Assembly (NCBI RefSeq): GCF_003018255.1
Contig: NZ_CP027440.1
Length of the DNA stretch: 64,000 nt
Strand: one strand, 5' to 3'
Source: Escherichia coli
GTDB lineage: Bacteria > Pseudomonadota > Gammaproteobacteria > Enterobacterales > Enterobacteriaceae
Shown: piece by piece, positions 21,665-63,807 of the stretch
How the letters are laid out: each line of letters begins with the position of its first letter
Position numbering within the stretch: the first letter of the stretch is position 1
The notes under the pieces: generated by a model
Seen by the model: the letters and a program-made list of their open reading frames with translations, nothing else
Told to the model about the DNA's origin: nothing
Databases searched by the model: none
Program-made: the position numbers and the translations under genes

Positions 21665-22602
21665 TAACCCGCGAGACGCTGGTATTCTTTGGCTATTTCA
21701 CTCGCCAGGATGGCGTTGTTGAACACCAGCTGGATGTTGGATTTCAGGCTGTCACCGCCGGTCAACTCAGCAACGCGCGCCAGCAGGAATGGCGTACTTT
21801 CTTTACCAATAACACCCTGCGCTTCAGCTTCAGCTACCGCCTGATCGATCGCCGCATTGATAGTGTGTTCCGGCATAGCAAACTGTTCCGGAATCGGGTT
21901 CGCTACCACGAGGCCACCGTTCAGCCCGCTTTGCCATTTCACCGCCATTGCACGGGCAATTTCGCTGGCGCTGTCGAGACGAATGCTCACGTCAAACGGG
22001 CTGGTGCGGCAGAAAAACGCAGGCAGCGCTTTGGTCTGATAGCCAATTAGCGGTACACCGAAAGTTTCTAAATATTCGGTAGTTAAGCCTAAATCGAGAA
22101 TAGATTTCGCCCCGGCACAAACGACGGTGACATTGGTGTGCGCCAGTTCTTGCAAATCGGCAGAAATATCGAAGGTATGTTCCGCCCCGCGATGCACACC
22201 ACCAATTCCCCCGGTGGCAAATACTTTAATTCCGGCAAGCGCCGCAATAATCATCGTTGAAGCAACGGTGGTTGCACCATTTTTTCCGGCGGCAACAACA
22301 AAAGGTAAATCGCGACGACTAACTTTGGTCACGTTATGCCCTTCACGACCCAGCAATTCAATTTCTTCTTTGCTTAAACCCACTTTCATCACGCCGCCAA
22401 TAATGGCGATAGTGGCAGGTACAGCGCCCTGTTTACGAATAGTTTCTTCAACTTCAATTGCGGTCTGGGCATTTTGTGGGAACGGCATCCCGTGAGAAAT
22501 AATGGTCGATTCCAGCGCCACAACCGGTTTTTTGTTTTTTAAAGCGTCCTGCACTTCCGGGGAAATTTGTAATAATTCAGGGGAAATTTTTAATTCAGAC
22601 AT
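21664..22602 (-). CDS. psuG: Pseudouridine-5'-phosphate glycosidase
   Basis: 312 aa, matches YeiN/PsuG. Confidence 0.92.
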   Translation of the reverse strand: MSELKISPELLQISPEVQDALKNKKPVVALESTIISHGMPFPQNAQTAIEVEETIRKQGAVPATIAIIGGVMKVGLSKEEIELLGREGHNVTKVSRRDLPFVVAAGKNGATTVASTMIIAALAGIKVFATGGIGGVHRGAEHTFDISADLQELAHTNVTVVCAGAKSILDLGLTTEYLETFGVPLIGYQTKALPAFFCRTSPFDVSIRLDSASEIARAMAVKWQSGLNGGLVVANPIPEQFAMPEHTINAAIDQAVAEAEAQGVIGKESTPFLLARVAELTGGDSLKSNIQLVFNNAILASEIAKEYQRLAG

Positions 22603-23531
22603 TCTGCGTTCTCCACTAACGATATAACGTTGGCAATCGATAAATCGGGGTTATTGGTGTATTCACAGGAGAGCGCCATTGACGAACATCCCTGTGCGAA
22701 ACGAACAGATTCGGCAAACGGCATTCCGTCTACCCAACACGAAGCAAGTCCCGCCATCATGGCATCGCCCGCTCCGGTAACATTAATGACATTGGTTTTG
22801 ATCGGCGCAGACCAACCACTTTCACCGCTGATATCACTGTAATAAACGCCGTCGCCGCCCATGCTCAATACCAGTCGGTTCAGGCCATGTTGATGGAACC
22901 AGGCAGCAACTTTTGCCACATCTTCACGCCCTGACAAAGCAATCCCACTCAGGGTTTCCGCTTCAAGGCGGTTTGGCTTGAGAGTGTGGATTTGATTTAG
23001 ACGGTCGCGCACTTTGACACATTTCCACGCGGAAACAGGATCGACAAATACGGGTACGTTGGCGGCATTATCCAGAATCCATGCCAGTGCCTCTTCACTG
23101 ATATTACAGTCCGCGACAATGACCTTTGCCCTCTGAATAAATTCACCGTGCTGTGCGAGATATTCAGCTGTAATAGCGTTGCTAATATTCATGTCATTTA
23201 TAGCAACCAGCATTTCACCGGTATTATCGAGTAATGATAAATAGCTCGACGTATTTTCTCCCGGCACAATCAGGCATTTATCGACATAAACACCAGATTG
23301 ATTGGTTTGCGTTAGCAGCGATTGACCATAAAAATCACTGCCTACGGCGCTCAGTAGCCAGGCTTTATTCCCCAGCAACGCCAGGTTTTGTGCAATATTG
23401 CGCCCTACTCCACCAGGCGTAAACTTTATTTTACCTGGATTTGAATCCGCATAATTTAATGATTCATGTGAATATCCGGCGACATCAATATTCGCCGAAC
23501 CTATAATTACGACATAATCCTTTTCGCGCAT
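22590..23531 (-). CDS. psuK: Pseudouridine kinase (PfkB family)
   Basis: 313 aa, PfkB motifs GGVGRNIAQNLALLG and GAGDAMMAG. Overlaps psuG by 13 nt. Confidence 0.92.
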   Translation of the reverse strand: MREKDYVVIIGSANIDVAGYSHESLNYADSNPGKIKFTPGGVGRNIAQNLALLGNKAWLLSAVGSDFYGQSLLTQTNQSGVYVDKCLIVPGENTSSYLSLLDNTGEMLVAINDMNISNAITAEYLAQHGEFIQRAKVIVADCNISEEALAWILDNAANVPVFVDPVSAWKCVKVRDRLNQIHTLKPNRLEAETLSGIALSGREDVAKVAAWFHQHGLNRLVLSMGGDGVYYSDISGESGWSAPIKTNVINVTGAGDAMMAGLASCWVDGMPFAESVRFAQGCSSMALSCEYTNNPDLSIANVISLVENAECLN

Positions 23532-23598: not shown

Positions 23599-23634
23599 TT
23601 TAAACATGTGTTCATATTTAAACATGTGCTCATA
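23599..23634. repeat. Perfect tandem 18-bp direct repeat (TTTAAACATGTG[T/C]TCATA x2) upstream of psuK
   Basis: Two adjacent units differing at one position, 68-103 bp upstream of the psuK ATG. A partial third copy follows. Confidence 0.6.
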
Positions 23635-23954: not shown

Positions 23955-25646
23955 TTACGCTGCTTTTGCTACTGCGTCCACTTCCGGACGTTTCAGGAAG
24001 GCATAGGCCAGACCCGCCACCAGCGTACCGGCAATAATGGCTACCAGGTAACCCAGTACCGGCGTAATAGCGCCAGGGATCAGCAGAACAAACAGACCAC
24101 CGTGCGGTGCCATCAGTTTCGCACCAATCGCCATTGAGATTGCGCCAGTCAGCGCCCCACCAACGATACAACACGGCAGCACACGCATCGGATCACGAGC
24201 AGCAAACGGAATTGCACCTTCCGAAATAAAGCACAGACCAAGAACCAGAGCGGCTTTGCCACCTTCCTGCTGCGCTTTGTCGAATTTGCGACGCGCCACC
24301 ATTGTTGCCAGACCCATTGCCAGCGGTGGCACCATACCTGCCGCCATAATCGCCGCCATCGGGCCATAGGTTTGAGTACTCAGCAGACCCACACCGAATG
24401 CGTACGCTGCTTTATTTACCGGACCGCCCATGTCAGTACACATCATGCCACCGAGGATCGCCCCCAGCAGAACCGCATTCGCAGTCCCCATGGTCTGCAG
24501 CCAGTGAGTCAACCCTTCGAGAATGCCAGCAACCGGTTTACCGATCAGGTAGATCATCGCCAGACCGACCACCAGACTGGAAATTAGCGGAATGATCAGG
24601 ATCGGTTTCAGCGCCTCCATACTCTGTGGCAGTTTCAGTTGCGTACTGATTAACTTCGCAATGTAACCAGCCAGGAAGCCCGCAATAATACCCCCAATGA
24701 AGCCAGAACCGGTGCTGACCGCCAGCATACCCCCAATCAGACCCGGCGTGAGACCCGGACGATCGGCAATGGAGAAGGCAATGTAACCTGCCAGTACCGG
24801 CACCATCAGCGCAAAGGCTGAACCACCACCAATCTGCATCAGCGCCGCTGCCAACGTACCCGGCTCTTTAAACGCTTCGATACCAAAAGCAAAAGAAAGC
24901 GCGATACACAGACCACCTGCAACGACCATCGGCAGCATGTAAGAGACGCCCGTCAGCAAGTGACGGTAAGCGCCTGCACCCTCTTTCTTACCTTCAGTGG
25001 TCGCTGTTTGAGCTTTGCCCGCCGGTTCATACGGCGTTGCTTCAGCAACCGCTTTATCCAGTTCCTGCGCGGTTTTCTTCAGCGCCAGACCGGTAGAGGT
25101 GCGATACATCGGTTTACCAGCAAATTTCGCCAGATCCACTTCGATATCTGCCGCCACAATCACCAGATCCGCTGCGGCTACTTCTTCAGGGGTGATCGCA
25201 TTACCCGCGCCAACAGAACCACGGGTTTCAACTTTCACCCACCAGCCACGTTTTTTCGCTTCGGTTTCAATGGCTTCAGCCGCCATAAATGTGTGTGCTA
25301 CGCCAGTCGGGCAAGCTGTCACCGCAACTACGCGTTTCGGACCGCTGGTGGCAACTGGTGCTGTCGCAGCGACCGGTGCAGTGTAAGGTTTCGCATGGCC
25401 TTTGGCTTCACTCAGGAACAGCTCAGGGTGCGCAACTGCCCGGGAAATATCGCCCAGCCAGACATTTTTACCGTTCAGCGCGCTGTCGTTCGGGATGGAA
25501 TCACCGAGAACAATCGCCATTTCAGCGTCGTTCGGATTGTCGATGATTTCCAGTTTTGCTTTTCGCGCCGCCGCGCCCAGCAGGGTCTTCGCCATATAGG
25601 CGCGTGCCTGACCGAGATTAGCGTCAATAATCAGCAGCGTTTTCAT
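23955..25646 (-). CDS. fruA: Fructose PTS enzyme IIB'BC
   Basis: 563 aa, matches E. coli FruA. Confidence 0.95.
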   Translation of the reverse strand: MKTLLIIDANLGQARAYMAKTLLGAAARKAKLEIIDNPNDAEMAIVLGDSIPNDSALNGKNVWLGDISRAVAHPELFLSEAKGHAKPYTAPVAATAPVATSGPKRVVAVTACPTGVAHTFMAAEAIETEAKKRGWWVKVETRGSVGAGNAITPEEVAAADLVIVAADIEVDLAKFAGKPMYRTSTGLALKKTAQELDKAVAEATPYEPAGKAQTATTEGKKEGAGAYRHLLTGVSYMLPMVVAGGLCIALSFAFGIEAFKEPGTLAAALMQIGGGSAFALMVPVLAGYIAFSIADRPGLTPGLIGGMLAVSTGSGFIGGIIAGFLAGYIAKLISTQLKLPQSMEALKPILIIPLISSLVVGLAMIYLIGKPVAGILEGLTHWLQTMGTANAVLLGAILGGMMCTDMGGPVNKAAYAFGVGLLSTQTYGPMAAIMAAGMVPPLAMGLATMVARRKFDKAQQEGGKAALVLGLCFISEGAIPFAARDPMRVLPCCIVGGALTGAISMAIGAKLMAPHGGLFVLLIPGAITPVLGYLVAIIAGTLVAGLAYAFLKRPEVDAVAKAA

Positions 25647-30306: not shown

Positions 30307-30480
30307 TTTATTATACCAATCTTCTATTTTGCGCTTCCTGAACACCTTACACCCGCAATATTCACTCGTTGATTGATCGCCCTCACACTTCATCGCATTA
30401 ACAATCCAGACCAATTTCAATTGCTGTCATATAACTTTACACTGTCATTGTTAATTAATCGTTACTAAGACGTGACTCCT

Positions 30481-40535: not shown

Positions 40536-42125
40536 ATGACGCAAACTCTGTTAGCGATTGAAAATTTGTCGGTGGGTTTTCGCCATCAGCAAACCGTACG
40601 CACAGTAGTCAATGATGTTTCACTTCAGATTGAGGCTGGCGAAACGCTGGCGCTGGTGGGTGAGTCAGGTTCAGGCAAAAGCGTTACCGCGCTGTCAATT
40701 TTACGCCTGCTCCCTTCCCCGCCGGTTGAATATCTCTCCGGCGATATTCGTTTTCATGGCGAATCGCTGCTTCATGCCAGCGATCAAACGTTGCGCGGTG
40801 TACGCGGTAATAAGATCGCCATGATTTTTCAGGAGCCGATGGTGTCGTTAAATCCATTACATACCCTGGAAAAACAGCTTTATGAAGTACTTTCACTCCA
40901 CCGCGGGATGCGTCGGGAAGCGGCTCGTGGCGAAATTCTTAACTGCCTTGATCGCGTCGGTATCCGCCAGGCGGCAAAACGGCTGACAGATTATCCGCAT
41001 CAGCTCTCCGGCGGCGAACGCCAGCGGGTGATGATTGCGATGGCGCTGTTAACGCGACCGGAATTATTAATTGCCGATGAACCAACCACCGCGCTGGACG
41101 TCTCTGTCCAGGCGCAGATTTTACAGCTGTTGCGCGAACTGCAAGGCGAGCTGAATATGGGTATGCTGTTTATTACTCATAACCTCAGCATTGTTAGAAA
41201 ACTGGCCCACCGCGTGGCGGTAATGCAAAACGGTCGCTGTGTCGAGCAAAATAACGCCGCTACGCTATTTGCCTCACCCACTCATCCTTACACACAAAAG
41301 CTACTCAACAGTGAACCGTCAGGCGACCCGGTCCCATTGCCAGAACCTGCCTCAACGTTGCTGGATGTTGAACAGCTTCAGGTTGCCTTCCCCATTCGCA
41401 AAGGGATTTTGAAGCGCATTGTGGATCATAATGTGGTGGTGAAAAACATCAGTTTTACGCTACGAGCGGGTGAAACACTGGGTTTAGTGGGCGAGTCTGG
41501 TTCCGGGAAAAGCACGACGGGACTGGCGCTGCTGCGACTGATTAACTCTCAGGGCAGCATCGTCTTTGACGGTAAGCCACTGCAAAATTTAAATCGCCGC
41601 CAGCTGTTACCTATTCGTCATCGCATTCAGGTGGTATTTCAGGATCCAAACTCCTCGCTCAACCCACGACTCAACGTTTTGCAGATTATTGAGGAAGGCT
41701 TACGGGTTCACCAGCCGACGCTTTCTGCCGCGCAACGCGAACAACAAGTGATAGCCGTGATGCATGAAGTGGGATTAGATCCTGAAACACGCCACCGTTA
41801 TCCGGCGGAGTTCTCTGGTGGTCAGCGGCAACGTATTGCGATTGCCAGGGCGTTAATTCTTAAGCCCTCGCTGATCATTCTTGATGAACCAACATCATCA
41901 CTCGACAAAACGGTGCAGGCGCAAATATTGACGCTATTGAAATCATTGCAACAAAAGCATCAACTGGCCTATTTGTTTATCAGCCACGATTTGCACGTTG
42001 TCCGCGCGTTATGTCATCAGGTTATCGTACTGCGACAAGGGGAAGTAGTGGAACAAGGACCGTGCGCGCGCGTGTTTGCCGCACCGCAGCAGGAGTATAC
42101 GCGTCAGCTACTGGCGTTGAGCTGA
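40536..42125 (+). CDS. yejF: ABC transporter ATP-binding protein (two ABC domains)
   Basis: Start trimmed to [11 protein letters not shown] giving 529 aa. Two Walker A motifs GESGSGKS. Confidence 0.9.
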
Positions 42126-42128
42126 CGC

Positions 42129-42473
42129 TTAAAAAGGATTGTAGTTTGAAAAGGGTTCGGCAATTGCCACACCAAAATTTTTCAATCGGCATGTTGCAGC
42201 AAATTCGTCCTGGCGATTTACAAACAGGCACGGCTCACCTTCACACTCCAGCACCGAACATGGAACTTCGATGTCGCTTAACGCCTGGCTTAGTTTGTAC
42301 ATCACCGACCATGCATTATCACCATCCGGGCTAAGCAATTTAAGCGCCACCAGGCTGTTGTCACCGCACGGTCCATTTTGCGGAATCGGTTCAACCTTCG
42401 AACCTGCGAAACCAGCAGACCAGCGATAGTTCTGCGGCAGTCGATGGACGATTGAGAGTTGTAATGAAGTCAC
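42129..42473 (-). CDS. yejG: Small protein of unknown function
   Basis: 114 aa, convergent with yejF with only 3 nt between the stop codons. Confidence 0.78.
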
Positions 42474-42773
42474 TTATTTTCCCCGGAAGTACATTTTACT
42501 TCACAATTTGTTTACATCAATTTTAACACATCATCAACAATCCGTCTTTATACAGATCGTAAAGATTGATGCCTCGCCTGCGTGGCCTCTATGGCTCTGA
42601 TTTAAATAATATCTGCGGGCGTGGTCACGTTTGCGGGGCTATATGTACCCGTTTCTGCGATCTAACTCAACCTTTTTAACTACAATGATGTGACTTTTTA
42701 CATAAATTGATTTTACATAAAATAAACATATATCGGGGGAATGATAGATTTGTGGTTGACATGCATCAACAAA

Positions 42774-42791
42774 GGAAGCCTTTTAGCTTCC
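42774..42791 (-). terminator. Hairpin GGAAGC-N6-GCTTCC just 3' of bcr
   Basis: 6-bp stem followed by a short U-tract on the minus strand. Confidence 0.35.
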
Positions 42792-42806
42792 TCGTTGTGC
42801 AATAGA

Positions 42807-61320: not shown

Positions 61321-63807
61321 TTACACCTTCTCCAGTTTGACCGCGCACTTCTTGAAGTCCGTCTCTTTCGAGAGCGGATCGGTCGCGTCCAGCGTCAGTT
61401 TGTTAACCAGCTGTGCGGCATCGAAGAACGGCATGTACACCAGGCCCTGCGGCGGACGGTTACGACCGCGCGTTTCGACAATCGAGATCACTTCGCCACG
61501 GCGAGAAACCACTTTCACTTTGTCGCCACGGCGCAGATCGCGCGCTTTCGCATCCAGCGGGTGAATAAACAGGACCGCTTCCGGGAAGGCGCGGTGCAGT
61601 TCCGGTACACGGCGAGTCATACTGCCGGTATGCCAGTGCTCCAGAACGCGTCCGGTAGAGAGCCACAGGTCGTACTCTTCATCCGGTGCCTCCGCCGCCG
61701 GTTCGAACGGCAGCGCGAAGATCACCGCTTTGCCATCCGGTTTACCGTAGAACTTGTAGCCTTCGCCCGCTTTCACGTACGGGTCGTTACCTTCGCTGTA
61801 ACGCCACTGCGTTTCTTTACCGTTCACTACCGGCCAGCGCAGACCGCGTGCTTTGTGGTAATCATCGAACGGCGCCAGATCGTGACCGTGACCGCGACCA
61901 AACCATGCGTACTCTTCGAACAGCCCTTTTTGCAGATAGAAGCCTAGCTCGCGGGATTCATCGTTCAGCTGATCTTCCGCCAGTTCGGATAGCGGGTATT
62001 TGCTCACTTCCGGGGTGGCATACAGAATTTCGTACAGCGTTTTGCCACGCAGTTCCGGTTTCTTCGCCAGCAGATCTTCCGGCCATACTTCTTCAGTTTT
62101 GAAGCGGCGGGAGAACTGGACTAACTGCCAGAGATCCGATTTCGCTTCGCCCGGTGCCTGTACCTGCTGACGCCAGAACTGAGTACGGCGTTCGGCGTTA
62201 CCGTAAGCACCCTCTTTTTCTACCCACATTGCGGTCGGCAGGATCAAGTCGGCGGCCAGAGCACTGACTGTCGGATACGGATCGGAGACGATGATGAAGT
62301 TGCGCGGATCGCGCCAGCCCGGCATACGCTCTTCATTGATGTTCGGCCCGGCCTGCATGTTGTTGGTACACATGGTCCAGTAAACATTCAGCTTGCCGTC
62401 TTTCAGCGCACGGTCTTGTGCTACCGCATGCAGACCGATTTTTGCCGGAATGGTGCCGCTCGGGATATTCCACTTCTTCTCGCAGATATCACGATGTTTC
62501 TCGTTAGTCACCACCATGTCCGCAGGCAGACGGTGAGCAAAGGTGCCCACTTCACGCGCAGTACCACACGCGGAAGGCTGCCCGGTCAGGGAGAACGGAC
62601 CGCAACCCGGCTGGGAAATTTTGCCGGTCAGCAGGTGCAGGTTGTAGACCAGGTTGTTAGCCCACACGCCACGAGTATGCTGGTTGAAGCCCATCGTCCA
62701 GTAGGAGATGACTTTCTTGTTCGGATCGGCATACAGCTGCGCCAGTTGTTCTAACTGGTCTTTCGGCACGCCGGTCATTTCGGCAGTTTTTTCCAGCGTA
62801 TACTCAGCAACGAAGGCTTTGTAATCTTCAAAGCTCATCGGTTCGGAGGCGTCAGAACCCGGATTCTTCGCTGCTTTTTCCAGCGGATGGGTCGGACGTA
62901 AACCGTAGCCGATGTCCGTCGCCCCTTTGCGCAGGTTAACGTGTTTGCTGAAGAAGTCCTGATTTATCGCATTGTTTTGAATGATATAGTTGGCGATATA
63001 GTTCAGGATCACCAGGTCAGATTGCGGCGTAAAGATGATGCCGTTATCCGCCAGCTCGAAGCTACGATGCTGGTAGGTAGAAAGCACCGCCACGGTAACG
63101 TTCTGGTTAGAGAGACGACGGTTAGTGATGCGCGACCAGAGGATCGGGTGCATCTCCGCCATGTTTGCGCCCCACAGCACAAACGCGTCAGCCTGCTCGA
63201 TGTCGTCATAGCAGCCCATCGGCTCATCCATACCAAAGGTACGCATAAAGCCAACTACCGCCGACGCCATACAGTGACGCGCGTTCGGGTCGATGTTGTT
63301 CGAACGGAAGCCCGCTTTGAACAGCTTGGACGCGGCATAACCTTCCCAGATAGTCCACTGACCAGAACCGAACATACCGATCGATTCCGGCCCTTTTTCT
63401 TTCAGGGCGGTTTTGAATTTCTCTTCCATCACATCGAAGGCTTGATCCCAGGTGATTGGGGTAAATTCGCCTTCTTTGTCATATTTACCGTTTTTCATAC
63501 GCAGCAGCGGCTGCGTCAAACGGTCTTTACCGTACATGATTTTGGGCAGGAAATAGCCCTTAATGCAGTTCAGACCACGGTTAACCGGTGCGTCCGGGTC
63601 GCCCTGACAGGCCACCACACGCCCCTGCTGCGTTCCGACCAGAACGCCGCAACCCGTACCGCAGAAACGGCACGGCGCTTTATCCCATTTAATGGCTTCC
63701 TGCTGACCAACAACGGCGCGGGCAACGCCCGGCACGCTGAGACCGGCAGCCGCCGCAGCGGCCGCAACGGCGTTAGCTTTCATAAAGCTACGACGACTGA
63801 GTTTCAT
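61321..63807 (-). CDS. napA: Periplasmic nitrate reductase catalytic subunit NapA (molybdopterin)
   Basis: 828 aa, Tat signal ([31 protein letters not shown]), N-terminal Fe-S Cys motif [10 protein letters not shown]. Confidence 0.95.

Follow-up and report, generated by a model that had tools for sequence, protein, structure and literature searches.

ArcA is the response regulator of the ArcB/ArcA redox two-component system. Class I CRP promoters such as lacP1 have CRP centred at -61.5, and UP elements of the rrnB P1 type contact alpha-CTD in a zone from -38 to -59. Park et al. (2013, PLoS Genet e1003839, PMC3798270) mapped ArcA anaerobically by ChIP-chip and ChIP-seq and gave two ArcA regions for yejG, named yejG1 and yejG2 (Tables S1/S2/S4). 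The primary site, yejG1, was enriched in both replicates (8.2 and 8.5; Tables S1/S4/S6), and yejG2, with an ArcA box of 17.6 bits, had an enrichment of 1.9 in one replicate of two (replicate 2). In the same study yejG was placed among the 85 operons directly repressed by ArcA and rose 11.9-fold in an arcA mutant (Tables S5/S6), an effect of the whole yejG control region in which any share of yejG2 is combined with that of the site over the promoter P1. Expression of yejG is likewise higher in Salmonella arcA mutants. Chung et al. (2013, PMC3798280), using dPeak, found two sigma-70 binding events upstream of yejG, and their primer extension bore out both, with starts at 2,276,299 (P1) and 2,276,419 (P2) in U00096.2 (their Table 1). 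Finally, Myers et al. (2013) found 26-fold higher sigma-70 occupancy at yejG aerobically than anaerobically (1462 versus 56) and a 4-fold higher aerobic expression of the gene. A preliminary description of the DNA studied here had called the regulation of yejG unknown, a statement that no longer holds given the two mapped starts, the direct repression by ArcA and the aerobic bias of sigma-70; CRP, Cra and RpoH signals from SELEX or ChIP have also been reported. The site, its sequence and the regulation are thus already in the literature, though just in supplementary tables.

The locus lies in a 64,000-nucleotide stretch of Escherichia coli DNA (the window), in which the gene order is yejF (+), yejG (-), spacer, bcr (-) and rsuA (-). 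The spacer (positions 42474-42806; 333 bp, 62.5% A+T, rising to 72% around the repeats) separates the bcr coding sequence (42807-43997, minus strand) from that of yejG (42129-42473, minus strand; 114 aa), the gene regulated from it. These gene names agree with the RefSeq annotation of K-12 and of the identical E. coli ATCC 11775 locus, to which the spacer is 100% identical, and 5425 of 5426 complete E. coli genomes carry the spacer. Two exact copies of the 11-mer TTTTACATAAA stand in it on the plus strand at 42696-42706 and 42711-42721, separated by TTGA and 15 bp apart from start to start, confirming both the sequence and the context that had been described for them. On the strand of yejG, either copy appears as TTTATGTAAAA, which reads TTT-ATGTAAAA. 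A repeat search grouped the pair with a third, imperfect copy at 42511-42522 (family D1). When the spacer was simulated as a first-order Markov sequence, 0.35% of trials gave an exact repeat of at least 11 nt within 30 nt. Across the window, 4 distinct close repeats of this kind were seen against 0.34 expected, indicating that short local duplications are in general excess in real DNA; statistics based on composition are therefore suggestive at most. Tandem Repeats Finder did not call the pair because the copy number is just two. Elsewhere in the window, an 18-bp tandem duplication (TTTAAACATGTGTTCATA / TTTAAACATGTGCTCATA, 23599-23634) lies between the minus-strand open reading frames 22590-23531 and 23955-25646, which by map position are probably psuK and fruA, with two CRP-like boxes (23688 and 23743) located about 60-130 bp downstream of it. 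Close exact direct repeats were also found at 53027-53054 (TCCGGCACGCTT twice, 16-bp period) and 61493-61533 (TCGCCACGGCG twice, 30-bp period).

To place the published features on the window, we set the offset between U00096.2 and NC_000913.3 (1978) from the coordinates of bcr and verified it by the published ArcA site sequence, which was found at the predicted place. With this offset, the P2 start is the G at 42634 and the P1 start falls at about 42514. We read TTGAGT (42665-42670) and TACATA (42642-42647), 17 bp apart, as the probable -35 and -10 hexamers of the P2 core promoter (42634-42670, minus strand), a block that is almost invariant across genera. The copy nearer to P2 (hereafter proximal) occupies -62 to -72 and the other (distal) -77 to -87 of P2, and both lie more than 180 bp upstream of P1. 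The 17-bp spacer of P2 itself (TAGATCGCAGAAACGGG, 42648-42664) includes a GATC Dam site and is almost invariant across genera, which is unusual for a promoter spacer. Within it, GCAGAAACGGGTAC resembles a Cra half-site by reading; published work describes repression of yejG by Cra and a Cra ChIP-exo site placed in "intragenic yejG", and an RpoH-holoenzyme SELEX peak at 2,276,452 also maps here.

A further promoter has been proposed upstream of the repeats, where Shimada et al. assigned TTGATG and TATCAT (TTGATG-17-TATCAT, 42769-42741) to a "constitutive" RpoD promoter of yejG from holoenzyme SELEX, and where a consensus scan finds the same pair. If this promoter were active, the repeats would lie in its leader or operator, and the ArcA site, at about +5 to +35, would be a promoter-proximal operator. 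We consider this very unlikely, as deconvolution of the sigma-70 ChIP-seq data gave two binding events only, matching P1 and P2, primer extension with the P2 primer, which was able to detect an upstream start, gave one product, and the TATCAT element is poorly conserved. The -35 of this proposed promoter coincides with an FNR-consensus palindrome on the yejG strand (TTGATGCATGTCAA, 42756-42769; one mismatch to TTGATnnnnATCAA), about 35 bp upstream of the ArcA elements. The palindrome is kept across Enterobacteriaceae, and many genera carry the perfect consensus. In Myers et al. (2013) it appears as a predicted FNR site of 14.1 bits with a Fis ChIP-seq overlap and no FNR peak noted in its row, so that its strong conservation contrasts with an apparent lack of FNR occupancy. 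Between this box and bcr lies the bcr terminator hairpin (GGAAGC-TAAAA-GGCTTCC followed by TTTGTTG, 42774-42791), which a consensus terminator scan missed and which is supported by compensatory stem changes across genera (GGGAGC/GCTCCC, GGGGGC/GCCCCC and AGGCCC/GGGCCT). An Rfam scan of 42000-43100 found no structured RNA, returning one meaningless sub-threshold lncRNA hit.

The repeats coincide with the published site yejG2. This site lies on the minus strand at 42699-42729 (2276484-2276514 in U00096.2) and runs from one DR element, DRa, through a second, DRb, to a weak DR3; its sequence there, ATGTTTATTTTATGTAAAATCAATTTATGTA, is the first 31 nt of the yejG2 site ATGTTTATTTTATGTAAAATCAATTTATGTAAAA and takes in all of the distal copy and the greater part of the proximal one. 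The ChIP-seq peak of yejG2 is centred at 2,276,488 (42703 in the window), between the copies (Park et al. 2013, PMC3798270). This peak is weak and lies about 200 bp from the strong one, and could therefore partly be shoulder signal. The strong peak belongs to yejG1 (42497-42540, minus strand; 2276282-2276325), whose four DRs cover P1 from -26 to +18 and score 8.0, 10.0, 9.4 and 8.0 bits with the rebuilt matrix described below. The third ATGTAAA copy of family D1 (42508-42517) is DR3 of yejG1. The fourth DR of yejG1 (42497-42506) is TTGTGAAGTA in the window (8.0 bits) and TTGTGAAGTG in K-12 (5.8 bits, with a 1-nt deletion), predicting a slightly stronger P1 operator in the window strain than in K-12.

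We think it probable that the 11-mers are recognition elements for ArcA-P and part of an upstream, secondary ArcA site of yejG. For the distal copy at least, we put the chances that ArcA is the relevant factor somewhat above even. To examine the individual elements, we rebuilt a 10-bp DR matrix from 66 two-DR sites of Table S4 of Park et al. (2013), none of them from yejG, which reproduced the published scores within about 1 bit. Four elements were found upstream of P2, all on the yejG strand: DRa (ATGTTTATTT, 42720-42729), a TGTTTA element of 7.1 bits; DRb (ATGTAAAATC, 42709-42718), which is the distal copy and DR2 of yejG2, at 8.9 bits (published Ri 8.5 bits); the DR-like DRc (ATGTAAAAAG, 42694-42703), which is the proximal copy, also at 8.9 bits; and the DR-like DRd (TAGTTAAAAA, 42673-42682) at 10.6 bits, which occupies -48 to -39 of P2 and adjoins the -35 hexamer. 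For comparison, 71 of the 127,982 10-mers in the window reach 8 bits. DRa and DRb together (42709-42729, minus strand) have a centre-to-centre distance of 11 bp and a score of 16.1 bits and form an ArcA box by the published definition of two tandem DRs (consensus about TGTTAA), and this box includes the distal 11-mer only. The window holds just four ArcA boxes that reach 16 bits, against 0.15 expected; three lie in this spacer and one is the published yeiQ site. The yeiQ site (TTGTTAATTAATCGTTACTAA, 30448-30468) is the strongest ArcA box of the window at 20.4 bits (rebuilt matrix).

The proximal copy fits this architecture less well. The 15-bp spacing of the copies falls outside the ArcA spacing of 10-12 or 22 bp, which leaves DRc, 15 bp from DRb, out of the 11/22-bp register. 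Park et al. (2013, PMC3798270) scored, instead of DRc, a DR3 of 1.4 bits at 10-bp spacing, and at putP a 12-bp spacing abolished protection of DR3 in their footprints, so that a single additional base pair can be enough to lose an extra DR. Since 15 bp lies outside the published ArcA architectures, the pair consists of two ArcA-type elements and is not a single dimer site of ArcA; another protein may use the proximal copy. DRd, which is conserved in most genera and absent from the list of Park et al., stands 21 bp from DRc. We infer that DRd is an ArcA element, and the distance to DRc suggests a second ArcA module that would reach the -35 region.

We also asked how the region varies among relatives, taking 80 yejG loci, one genome per species, and aligning the 79 distinct upstream regions. 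Counted from the yejG start codon, positions of about -262 to -165 make up a block conserved at about 90-100%, which ends at the mapped P2 start; the next 80 bp or so, the P2 leader, are essentially without constraint. Among complete E. coli genomes, 5181 of 5423 share an identical 70-bp stretch around the repeats, and just 544 of 4983 do so for the adjoining 70 bp of P2 leader. Both copies, with at most one mismatch each and the same 15-bp spacing, were found in Escherichia, Salmonella, Citrobacter, Kluyvera, Enterobacter and several Kosakonia, as well as in Superficieibacter, Intestinirhabdus and Pseudenterobacter; Klebsiella, Leclercia and Mangrovibacter retain the distal copy at least. Within the repeats, variation falls on the 4-nt spacer and on the TTTA in the proximal copy. 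Conservation rests on the TGTAAAA cores, which hold across genera together with the 15-bp spacing between them and the distance to P2. DRb scores at least 6 bits in 98.7% of the 79 regions and DRc in 87%. The repeat pair is not a product of chance, and conservation is the decisive argument. On the two points by which the preliminary description had proposed to judge the repeats, the place of the yejG promoter and the conservation of the copies, P2 maps just downstream and the copies are conserved.

Conservation also bears on the origin of the repeat. The excess of close short duplications in the window would be in keeping with a functionless remnant of a 15-bp slippage duplication, but across genera both cores have been kept, in contrast to the freely diverging leader next to them, so that this highly improbable reading is effectively refuted. 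Strong purifying selection across Enterobacteriaceae, despite the weak ChIP signal, argues that the site is functional and not a computational by-product. However, the constraint extends over the whole block of about 100 bp, with the P2 spacer and an invariant GTCACA among its parts, and so does not point to ArcA in particular. Members of the Klebsiella oxytoca group keep the ArcA box and P2 but show joint decay of three parts: the proximal copy, the GTCACA and DRd, the fourth element. This joint loss hints that the three may form one module.

The invariant hexamer belongs to a CRP-like box. This box (TGTGACTTTTTACATA, 42689-42704, plus strand) agrees in E. coli with the TGTGA-N6-TCACA core at 8 of 10 positions and is centred at -62.5 of P2; it has the form TGTGA-CTTTTT-ACATA, and the proximal copy overlaps its weaker half, ACATA. 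Read as a class I site, this box would let cAMP-CRP activate P2, with the proximal copy as its weaker half, and the likeness of that copy to the distal one would be secondary. We regard this as a possible but tentative explanation. Across genera the TGTGAC half does not vary, and nine other lineages reach 9 of 10 positions (TGTGACTTTTTACACA, with an ACACA half). Measured from the mapped P2 start, the centre falls within 1 bp of the classical position, and genomic SELEX gave cAMP-dependent CRP binding to the yejG-bcr spacer (a chip peak and two clones). On the other hand, matches at the 8/10 level seen in E. coli are at chance level in the window (25 found, 25.6 expected), and the SELEX authors assigned other boxes, at 42796-42811 and 42657-42672. 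The published CRP/Cra ChIP-exo paper mentions yejG for Cra only, and a CRP site would leave the distal copy unexplained. A CRP site here would be compatible with ArcA acting as an anti-activator. It is also conceivable, though we hold it to be unlikely, that the proximal copy, GTCACA and DRd constitute a separate conserved module in which an off-register ArcA element lies over a class I CRP site. If so, ArcA-P would repress P2 by anti-activation, and redox and carbon signals would be joined on yejG.

The preliminary description had proposed that the repeats are either an UP element or a regulator binding site for yejG. The second part is borne out by the published ArcA-P site yejG2, lying in the conserved block just upstream of the mapped P2. 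The first part fails on position, since both copies lie outside the UP zone of P2 and far upstream of P1; any UP subsite here would be the A-tract at -40 to -44, within DRd, which is also where a proximal subsite would sit. A broader version of this idea is that the repeats are a sequence bound or bent by a nucleoid protein (Fis, IHF or H-NS), or an UP-like A/T tract stimulating P2 through the alpha subunits of RNA polymerase. The local A/T richness fits such a role. So do the Fis ChIP-seq signal that Myers et al. (2013) flag at the predicted FNR site nearby and the sequence spanning the gap between the copies, which by reading agrees with the IHF core WATCAANNNNTTR at 12 of 13 positions. But the conservation is base-specific, on TGTAAAA, and the ATCAA spacer that carries the IHF core is the least conserved part; moreover, the table of Shimada et al. 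in which H-NS sites are marked has no such mark for this spacer, and the evidence for Fis is at the level of the region only. Together with the position outside the UP zone, this makes an architectural role quite unlikely.

Another member of the OmpR/PhoB family that binds tandem half-sites might be involved instead of ArcA: PhoP (TGTTTA-N5-TGTTTA), CpxR (GTAAA-N5-GTAAA), OmpR or RstA. TGTTTA-TTTTA-TGTAAA in the repeat region resembles a PhoP box, yejG was 2.7- to 3.9-fold up in a Shigella phoPQ mutant, and the gene is specifically induced by acid. However, the PhoP-box match has two mismatches, a level reached 13.3 times per shuffled window, and CpxR yields just two-mismatch matches, near chance, at a spacing of N10 and not N5. 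PhoP and CpxR boxes were rejected on these frequencies. The phoPQ effect may also be indirect, and we deem such a regulator improbable. By eye, TyrR and DnaA boxes, OmpR/RstA half-sites and an FNR half-site within the repeats each failed on symmetry or spacing.

Taking ArcA as the preferred regulator, we propose the following model. The distal copy together with the upstream DRa (ATGTTTATTT) forms a canonical 11-bp ArcA box at -95 to -75 of P2, the proximal copy is a further DR-like element 15 bp downstream of the distal one, and DRd (TAGTTAAAAA) is a fourth, set against the -35 hexamer of P2. Under anaerobic or micro-aerobic conditions, ArcA-P would occupy this upstream cluster and the stronger four-DR site over P1, turning both yejG promoters off. 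Silencing of P2 might come about by spreading to the -35/UP region or by displacement of an activator such as CRP at -62.5. That ArcA binds the proximal copy and the fourth element, and that binding from -95 to -39 represses P2 in one of these ways, are the predicted steps of the model. Looping of the DNA from the upstream cluster to the one over P1 was considered and rejected: the two are 189 bp apart in E. coli, or 18.0 helical turns, but this distance ranges from 95 to 223 bp among orthologues without a preferred helical phase.

As the probable secondary ArcA operator of a gene with an uncharacterised product, the repeats matter little beyond tidy annotation: a repeat noticed in sequence can now be assigned to a published ArcA site. 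What is added here is modest, namely the position of the site relative to P2, its deep conservation, the off-register proximal element and the fourth DR-like element. The yejG control region holds candidate sites for several regulators (the conserved FNR-like box, the ArcA DRs and the CRP-like box) along with two promoters. Should the function of YejG ever be established, tight aerobic-only and acid-inducible expression would be part of the story.

Finally, we compared the repeats with the described systems that they most resemble. With the UP elements of rrnB P1 they share A/T-rich DNA upstream of a sigma-70 promoter, and they differ in lying at -62 to -87 and in a conservation of particular bases, TGTAAAA, rather than of composition. 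The likeness to class I CRP promoters such as lacP1 lies in a TGTGA half-site with a partner 6 bp away, a weak -10 and a SELEX signal in the spacer; set against this are a second half-site that is poor in E. coli (ACATA), a centre 1 bp off and evidence at the level of SELEX. A DR offset by 15 bp that competes with CRP is not among the published classes of ArcA sites. The closest match is to the multi-DR ArcA sites of Park et al. (2013), represented by yejG1 and yejG2 themselves: the locus and sequence are the same, DRs of the TGTTA/TGTAA type stand on one strand, DRa and DRb form an 11-bp box with extra DRs beyond the dimer site, and an aerobically expressed gene is repressed. Compared with those sites, the copies are 15 bp apart where the published spacings are 10, 11, 12 or 22 bp, and the occupancy in vivo is weak. 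Unlike most repressing ArcA sites, the site at -95 to -62 lies upstream of the P2 core promoter and does not overlap it.
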